Part shown: one piece after another, positions 56,110 through 57,129 of the stretch
Layout of the letters: every line of letters begins with the position of its first letter
Numbering within the stretch: the stretch's first letter is position 1
NCBI RefSeq assembly: GCF_003334405.1
Contig: NZ_QOWM01000001.1
Origin: Escherichia coli
GTDB taxonomy: Bacteria; Pseudomonadota; Gammaproteobacteria; Enterobacterales; Enterobacteriaceae
Reading direction: 5' to 3' (one strand)
Length of the DNA: 64,000 bases
The notes under the pieces: generated by a model
Seen by the model: only the letters and a program-made list of their open reading frames with translations
Database searches by the model: none
Told to the model about the DNA's origin: nothing
Made by a program: the position numbers and the translations under genes

Positions 56110-57129
56110 ATGAAACTTTATTATTACAAATCTCCTACTGGTAACTTTGGTGATGATTTAAATGCTTGGCTGTGGGAAGAGTTGCTGCCAGGGTATTTCA
56201 AATATGAAAATGGTATTATTTTTTCAGGAATTGGAACTATTATTTCTGCTGATATGCCAACATCGAGTAAAACTGTAATCTTTGGCAGTGGCGTTGGTTA
56301 TGGTTATCCACCAATGAATTTCGGTGACAATAGATGGGATGTGCGCTTTGTAAGAGGTCCGCTATCCGCAAAAGTCCTTTCGCTGCCTGCTAATAAATAT
56401 ATTACAGATAGTGCAATTCTCGTCTCTAAAATAGAGGGTTTTGAACCGTTGCCTGAGAATGAAAGAAGCGGGATTATTTTTGTTCCCCATCATCATGCAT
56501 TACATACAGGTCAATGGCATGAAGTATGCAAATCAGTAGGTATTGAGTTTATTGATCCTACCCAAGATTCAAAATATGTAATACAAAAAATAAGAAAGTC
56601 GAAACTTGTTCTAGCTGATGCGATGCATGCTGCTATTATTGCAGATTCACTTCGAGTTCCGTGGATACCTCTGGTAACCTCTAATCAAATTAATACATTT
56701 AAGTGGATTGATTGGACTTTATCAGTTAAATTAGAGTACTCCCCATCATATATTGGGCCAAGTTCTATGCGTGAATGTTTGAGGAATAAATTTCTTCATT
56801 TATATGGTGAGTCATTTTATATAAAAAGTTTGAATGCTGATGATTCCATAAATTGCTTTTATAAACAAAGGGATATTTTGTCAAATAAATGGTGGCCTAT
56901 TTATAGTAAAATAATTAGAAGATGTGTATATACAGCCCCCAATCTTTTATTAAAGAAAATTGAACAATTCTCGTCTCCTAGATGGGATGAAAAATATATT
57001 AGTTTAGCTAAGAAAAAAATCTTAGATGCAATGAAGAGAGCGCCAATGTTAAGTTCCGATGATGTTTATCAATCGAATTTAAATAAAATTCTTAATGAGG
57101 TAGAATGCGTAAGAAAAATGTATAAATAA
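56110..57129 (+). CDS. Putative polysaccharide pyruvyl transferase-like protein (tentative)
   Basis: ATG 56110 (MKLYYYKSPTGNFGDDLNAWL); the G-x-x-N-x-G-D pattern resembles the WcaK N-terminus (GNHTCGNRGDSAIL); visibly AT-rich; not membrane-spanning. Confidence 0.4.
   Translation: MKLYYYKSPTGNFGDDLNAWLWEELLPGYFKYENGIIFSGIGTIISADMPTSSKTVIFGSGVGYGYPPMNFGDNRWDVRFVRGPLSAKVLSLPANKYITDSAILVSKIEGFEPLPENERSGIIFVPHHHALHTGQWHEVCKSVGIEFIDPTQDSKYVIQKIRKSKLVLADAMHAAIIADSLRVPWIPLVTSNQINTFKWIDWTLSVKLEYSPSYIGPSSMRECLRNKFLHLYGESFYIKSLNADDSINCFYKQRDILSNKWWPIYSKIIRRCVYTAPNLLLKKIEQFSSPRWDEKYISLAKKKILDAMKRAPMLSSDDVYQSNLNKILNEVECVRKMYK

Follow-up and report, generated by a model that had tools for sequence, protein, structure and literature searches.

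An ExoV-like gene of the Escherichia coli O144 O-antigen cluster as a predicted polysaccharide pyruvyl transferase gene

Does an open reading frame (ORF) situated between manB and wzx of an Escherichia coli O-antigen cluster encode a pyruvyl transferase, and would the O-antigen then carry a pyruvate ketal? The ORF in question is located at positions 56110-57129 on the plus strand of a stretch of E. coli DNA of 64,000 nucleotides (nt; contig NZ_QOWM01000001.1, assembly GCF_003334405.1), which is referred to as the window. In a first-pass annotation made from the sequence alone it was described as a soluble member of the O-antigen cluster with an N-terminal motif similar to that of the colanic acid pyruvyl transferase WcaK, and as a possible pyruvyl transferase. 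According to our analysis, the ORF very probably encodes a cytoplasmic ketal-pyruvyl transferase that uses phosphoenolpyruvate (PEP) and belongs to the PS_pyruv_trans family, more precisely to its ExoV branch, and is co-transcribed with the remaining genes of the O144 operon from the JUMPStart/ops element upstream of wzy. The analysis directly shows that the protein belongs to this family and has its fold and conserved catalytic motifs, that the gene is part of the operon, and that it is conserved across strains.

The gene and its annotation are already known, and nothing is new in the gene itself. GenBank lists the exact sequence under the name "polysaccharide pyruvyl transferase family protein"; the name given in the reference deposit of the O144 cluster, whose protein is 100% identical to that of the window, is "exopolysaccharide glucosyl ketal-pyruvate-transferase".

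Family affiliation and catalytic motifs

The ORF starts with an ATG at 56110, its stop codon ends at 57129, and its 339 codons encode a protein with the N-terminus MKLYYYKSPTGNFGDDLNAWL, in agreement with the extent given in the first-pass annotation. An alternative upstream ATG at 56068 is also open and results in a protein of 353 amino acids (aa). This start, 14 codons earlier and within manB, is used in GenBank entry AIG62458.1, which is 100% identical to the window, and in its UniRef entry. Since the longer version would share 32 nt with the end of manB, and since the Met at 56110 is the alignment start for 31 homologues, 56110 is the better start. On the opposite strand inside the ORF, no rival ORF of at least 80 aa was found. 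The protein is indeed soluble by prediction, since its highest 19-residue Kyte-Doolittle mean is 1.19, compared to 2.99 for the neighbouring Wzx, and no membrane segment was predicted.

As judged from the alignments, the protein is ExoV-like rather than WcaK-like, with ExoV of Sinorhizobium meliloti as its closest relative among the known pyruvyl transferases. By tblastn against plasmids, exoV was located on pSymB of S. meliloti, and BLASTP aligned residues 1-245 of the ORF protein to ExoV over 247 columns with 40% identity and 60% positives (E 4e-62). The catalytic motifs occur at nearly the same positions (N12/N12, R82/R83, and H173/H172 in ORF/ExoV), and both genes belong to Wzx/Wzy-type repeat-unit loci, exoV being situated in the exo cluster beside exoW and near exoT. 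Thus the ORF shows the catalytic-region homology and the Wzx/Wzy-dependent locus of the ExoV-type subfamily (KEGG "succinoglycan biosynthesis protein ExoV"). Differences are given by the length of ExoV (316 compared to 339 aa), by approximately 95 unalignable C-terminal residues, and by the glycan, which in case of ExoV is the Glc7Gal octasaccharide of succinoglycan with a 4,6-ketal, whereas a mannose-containing O-antigen is predicted for the ORF. For an enzyme of the ExoV type, the expected acceptor would be a terminal beta-glucose that receives its pyruvate at O4/O6.

In the Pfam search, which the first-pass annotation had proposed as a check, PF04230 (PS_pyruv_trans) was the sole match of the ORF (i-E 2e-6, 28.4 bits); this match is weak and partial and was judged by its E-value. 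PF04230 was also matched by 30 of the 32 aligned homologues at E <= 0.001. With ExoV the same weak partial match to the C-terminal half of the model was obtained (residues 57-191, 36.4 bits), and the low score of the ORF is therefore a trait of the ExoV branch and no sign of doubtful membership. No glycosyltransferase or acyltransferase family was matched in the Pfam and NCBIfam searches. Neither outcome that would speak against the family, i.e., no match to it or a strong match to another one, was obtained, and the assignment stands.

Among 5.8 billion proteins searched, 2,085 relatives were found, the best of which, after the 100% identical protein, is only 56% identical. Many relatives with 39-51% identity are named ExoV by JGI. 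Several ExoV-like family members are named "exosortase" by NCBI or UniProt, and the orthologue of Escherichia albertii is named "predicted glycosyltransferase"; these names look like propagated misannotations.

On the structural level, two Rossmann-like domains (GT-B-like) were found for the ORF protein, with the pyruvyl transferases WbbZ and Pvg1p as the nearest solved structures, and ExoV entries of AFDB50 gave TM-scores of 0.7-0.96. WbbZ of Klebsiella pneumoniae O1 (PDB 6X1L; 16% identity to the ORF) is an O-antigen pyruvyl transferase whose PEP-dependent activity has been proven biochemically and which caps the non-reducing end of the O-antigen polymer (PMC10629545), whereas the system of the ORF is Wzx/Wzy-dependent and one modification per repeat is expected. 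Pvg1p of Schizosaccharomyces pombe (PDB 5AX7; 14% identity) is a galactose 4,6-pyruvyl transferase of the Golgi and acts on N-glycans. WbbZ lacks the C-terminal helical domain present in the ORF. This all-helical domain is restricted to the ExoV-type branch and contains an invariant Leu-Ser (L314-S315); membrane or partner docking is our guess for its role. Taken together, the suggestion of a possible pyruvyl transferase is borne out by the PF04230 match, 40% identity to ExoV, the structural matches to WbbZ and Pvg1p, and three family motifs.

These motifs, i.e., NxGD, Rxxx(S/T), and a conserved His (Kelly et al., PMC10629545), were traced in an alignment of 32 sequences reaching down to 39% identity (Table 1). 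The NxGD motif is equivalent to N29xG31D32 of WbbZ, and the counterpart of its Asp in Pvg1p, D106, contacts the acceptor sugar. The Arg of the second motif is equivalent to R121 of WbbZ and to R217 of Pvg1p, which binds the PEP carboxylate (PMC10629545 for both motifs). Counterparts of H173 are H226 of WbbZ and H337 of WcaK. A second N-F-G-D is present at residues 70-73 (56317-56328), in which F71 and G72 are nearly invariant and N70 is variable. As N70 is not conserved, a duplicated catalytic motif is unlikely here.

The part of the first-pass annotation that relied on WcaK requires a correction. WcaK of the same window (426 aa) starts with MKLLILGNHTCGNRGD and does share N-x-G-D with the ORF (N13-D16 and N12-D15, respectively), N13 being position 1 of the Pfam PF04230 model. 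WcaK and CsaB belong to PF04230 as well, and the order of their NxGD, R...S, and H-[AS]-x-I motifs is that of the ORF protein. Unlike the ORF protein, WcaK carries approximately 90 and 60 additional residues between the motifs, and no significant direct similarity was observed. When the two window proteins were compared by BLASTP, the best segment, which surrounds the conserved His, reached E = 0.33 and the N-terminal one E = 5, and hhalign of the 32-sequence ORF profile with WcaK gave a probability of 0.2%. The sole alignable segment comprises residues 165-188 of the ORF and 329-352 of WcaK and includes H173 and H337. In NCBIfam, no family was found for the ORF at E <= 1, including the WcaK/CsaB models TIGR04006, NF007452, and TIGR03609. 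In shuffled ORF sequences, N.GD occurred inside the first 30 residues in 0.4% and anywhere in 4.6% of the shuffles. A direct kinship to WcaK was thus rejected, and both proteins are related solely via the Pfam family: the NxGD motif is shared as claimed, but the ORF failed every direct comparison with WcaK/CsaB. The motif taken alone is weak evidence, though a fair lead, as the pairwise resemblance is no better than chance. The first-pass annotation called its assignment tentative because of the short motif; the motif is indeed insufficient, and the support comes from elsewhere.

The O144 cluster and its genomic context

In agreement with the first-pass annotation, the gene is part of an O-antigen cluster, located between manB and wzx in the galF-gnd region. 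The cluster consists of, in this order, JUMPStart/ops, wzy, three GT4 genes, manC, manB, the predicted pyruvyl transferase gene, wzx, and a GT2 gene, followed by gnd (Table 1), and forms a low guanine-plus-cytosine (GC) block of 27-34%; wzz is located downstream of ugd. Since the exact products of wzy and wzx bear O144 names at NCBI, the cluster is identified as E. coli O144. No NCBIfam model matched wzy or wzx. The predicted pyruvyl transferase gene is separated from manB by 10 nt and from wzx by 17 nt. Due to these short gaps and the 4-nt overlap of wzx and the GT2 gene, the genes form one operon.

Table 1. Features of the window related to the predicted pyruvyl transferase gene and the O144 cluster. 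Residue numbers refer to the 339-aa protein.
Feature	Position	Strand	Evidence or remark
wcaK, colanic acid pyruvyl transferase, outside the O-antigen system	43297..44577	+	TIGR04006 932 bits; PF04230 141 bits, full length
JUMPStart element with ops GGCGGTAG at 48553-48560	48526..48563	+	exact pattern search, sequence read
wzy, O144 family O-antigen polymerase (EpsG fold family)	48613..49821	+	NCBI name of exact sequence; PF14897
Three GT4 glycosyltransferase genes	49876..53200 (49876-50964, 50988-52100, 52130-53200)	+	
manC, GDP-mannose supply	53239..54678	+	Pfam; 68% aa identity to O176 ManC
manB, GDP-mannose supply	54705..56099	+	Pfam; 85% aa identity to O176 ManB
Predicted ExoV-like polysaccharide pyruvyl transferase gene	56110..57129	+	339 aa; O144 O-antigen cluster
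NxGD motif codons, N12-F13-G14-D15	56143..56154	+	invariant in 32 sequences
PF04230-matched part	56263..56682	+	residues 52-191 vs model positions 92-279 of 280
Rxxx(S/T) motif codons, R82-G-P-L-S86	56353..56367	+	V81-R82-G83-P84-L85 invariant, position 86 S or T (32 sequences)
Conserved His codon, H173	56626..56628	+	invariant D170-x-M172-H173 (32 sequences)
C-terminal all-helical extension, ~residues 215-339	56752..57126	+	outside Pfam model; aligns with neither WbbZ nor Pvg1p
wzx, O144 family O-antigen flippase	57147..58664	+	NCBI name of exact sequence; strongly hydrophobic
GT2 glycosyltransferase gene	58661..59602	+	4-nt overlap with wzx

Other serogroups were considered and discarded. 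Serogroup O156 was rejected because its cluster contains gmd/fcl/gmm, which are without counterpart in the window cluster, and the O40/Shigella dysenteriae type 9 family was set aside due to the O144 names of the exact wzy and wzx sequences. A prediction of the backbone from O176, which is the best nucleotide match, was rejected as well, since its glycosyltransferases are unrelated to those of O144, being at most 27% identical over approximately 130 aa.

In the protein search described above, the ORF protein was found 100% identical on 82 E. coli contigs, one of them being CP065611.1, a complete chromosome in GenBank. When 5,426 complete RefSeq genomes of E. coli were searched by megablast, the ORF gave no match, and the cluster was matched at the level of manC/manB only. 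Due to the absence of an O144-specific match in this set, despite the 82 contigs elsewhere, O144 is rare or absent among the RefSeq complete genomes. The nearest non-O144 relatives of the ORF protein (53-56% identity) are encoded in capsule-type loci of E. coli, Klebsiella, and Raoultella. In the capsule loci of the homologues with 53-54% identity, the homologue adjoins a flippase gene, and an initiating phosphoglycosyl transferase gene and manCB are present (E. coli and Raoultella).

Two further observations concern the relation to the colanic acid operon. A second JUMPStart with ops GGCGGTAG is located around 24393, upstream of wza. Because each operon is preceded by JUMPStart with ops, both the O-antigen and the colanic acid operon should be RfaH-dependent. 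Furthermore, manB of the O-antigen cluster is 73-91% identical on the nucleotide level to the colanic acid gene cpsG (38797-40215), situated approximately 15 kb upstream, and forms a GC bump (0.48) within the low-GC cluster. Recombination between such direct repeats apparently deleted the O-antigen cluster of E. coli O14 (Liu et al., 2020 review).

Points of doubt and alternative explanations

Several observations weigh against the assignment as an ExoV-type pyruvyl transferase. The match to PF04230 is a weak one, limited to the second half of the model, no NCBIfam model matches the ORF, PDB sequence searches with the single protein and with the 32-sequence profile gave nothing relevant, and Foldseek against PDB returned only weak GT-B matches. 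The last approximately 125 residues are without counterpart in any characterised pyruvyl transferase structure. The Arg situated two residues before the conserved His in Pvg1p (R337) and WcaK (R-L-H) is Ala171 in the ORF and Ser in ExoV. R337 of Pvg1p was modelled on the PEP phosphate (PMC10629545); phosphate binding must therefore differ in the ExoV branch, and the invariant arginines R119, R162, and R182 of the alignment are candidates for this role. Finally, O144 is without a published O-antigen structure, and its type strain is rough despite a complete-looking cluster. O144 is one of three E. coli serogroups with a type strain reported as rough, and due to this roughness the review by Liu et al. 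(2020) gives no O144 structure and excluded the cluster from its analysis. In the literature searched, no O144 structure later than 2019 was found.

This last point bears on the question whether the cluster and the enzyme are active at all. All nine cluster genes (48613-59602) are intact in the window, and in six independent E. coli assemblies the cluster is nearly base-for-base the same, the ORF gene being intact and showing either no difference or a single synonymous one. In E. albertii, the orthologue is 96% identical with 15 mostly conservative substitutions, and every motif residue is retained. The changes among the assemblies and between both species fit purifying selection. The E. albertii O-genotype EAOg17 shows 94% nucleotide identity to the complete O144 cluster, and its strain P6-1 was agglutinated by O144 antiserum, i.e., the matching cluster makes an antigen. 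Moreover, O144:H25 is a recognised enteroinvasive serotype typed by its O-antigen. The antiserum result and this serotype show that wild strains do express the O144 antigen. A family member without practical effect, with a silent or defective O144 cluster or an inactive enzyme and a lipopolysaccharide (LPS) free of pyruvate, is thus an unlikely explanation, even though the O144 type strain makes no O-antigen despite its complete-looking cluster, point mutations invisible to a sequence survey were suggested (Liu et al., 2020), and the window protein does not differ from that of the reference deposit. With nine intact genes, nearly identical clusters in six assemblies, and the reaction of the matching E. 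albertii with the antiserum, the cause of the roughness of the type strain is not visible in the window cluster.

Very unlikely is a GT-B glycosyltransferase or another group transferase, e.g., a TagF-like phosphotransferase, which merely resembles pyruvyl transferases and adds a sugar or another substituent. The sequence of the ORF matched no family of GT-B nucleotide-sugar glycosyltransferases (GT1/GT4-type), and the presence of the motifs and the homology to ExoV argue for a pyruvyl transferase. That an active pyruvyl transferase serves another surface glycan (colanic acid, a capsule, or the enterobacterial common antigen) is scarcely credible, because, although the nearest relatives occur in capsule-type loci and the window contains a colanic acid cluster at a distance of 3.5 kb upstream, colanic acid has its own dedicated and intact WcaK, the gene sits closely between manB and wzx within the low-GC O-antigen operon, and it travels with this operon into E. 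albertii.

Predicted consequences for the O144 O-antigen

For the predicted pyruvyl transferase we propose a mechanism that is drawn wholly by analogy with ExoV, in addition to the position in the Wzx/Wzy operon. ExoV is the succinoglycan pyruvyl transferase and acts on the lipid-linked repeat unit before export, its pyruvylation is reported to be important for polymerisation and export, and WcfO of Bacteroides fragilis has the same timing, before flipping and polymerisation (2019 review, PMC6801904). In case of O144, WecA and the four glycosyltransferases of the cluster would assemble an undecaprenyl-diphosphate-linked, mannose-containing O-unit, and the ORF enzyme would move a pyruvyl group from PEP onto two hydroxyls of one O-unit sugar (4,6, or vicinal as in 3,4 or 2,3), resulting in a cyclic ketal of R or S configuration. 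This step would take place at the cytoplasmic face, ahead of flipping by Wzx and polymerisation by Wzy/Wzz, and would yield one negative charge per repeat. From this analogy we infer the catalytic activity of the protein, the timing of the step, and the product on the LPS.

GDP-mannose is the only sugar-nucleotide pathway encoded in the O144 cluster. Considering WecA, the four glycosyltransferases, and this single pathway, the O144 repeat is probably a WecA-started pentasaccharide of mannose and sugars of the housekeeping pool. Since the clades of pyruvyl transferases sort neither by sugar nor by linkage in a published phylogeny, the pyruvylated sugar is unreadable from the ORF sequence. In the review of E. 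coli O-antigens by Liu et al. (2020), pyruvate is listed only for O112ac, O149, and O156. Like the ketal predicted here, those formed by the pyruvyl transferases of O156, O149 (WbuT), O112ac (WfeN), S. dysenteriae type 9 (WffR), and S. dysenteriae type 10 (WffS) are placed on a Wzx/Wzy-made O-unit. The O-antigen of S. dysenteriae type 10 contains a 4,6-pyruvylated beta-mannose (PMC6801904), and the O144 cluster likewise contains manCB. Among the best 120 homologues of the ORF no Shigella name was seen, the names being shown in part and many matches being nameless. In the WbbZ paper, S. dysenteriae O-antigen enzymes, unspecified which, are assigned to the WbbZ/Pvg1p clade. A pyruvate ketal on the O144 O-antigen, as put forward in the first-pass annotation, is a reasonable, sound, and specific prediction.

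Going further, one may speculate, with considerable doubt, that pyruvylation is a required checkpoint in O144 and, as a related possibility, that a pyruvylated mannose epitope is common to O144 and S. dysenteriae type 10. If the former holds true, the O-unit would need pyruvate for flipping by Wzx or polymerisation by Wzy, as reported for ExoV, and loss or poor expression of the ORF gene would result in a rough or semi-rough strain. The shared epitope, if true, would explain the serological relationship between O144 and S. dysenteriae type 10 of the classical literature.

Pyruvate ketals are acid-labile and were at first missed in S. dysenteriae type 10 and Klebsiella O1 (PMC6801904, PMC10629545). 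As a practical warning, standard hydrolysis of LPS could strip such a ketal. The main value of the ExoV-like assignment lies in its link to serogroup O144, for which an acidic, mannose-containing O-unit, probably of five sugars and carrying a pyruvate ketal, is predicted.
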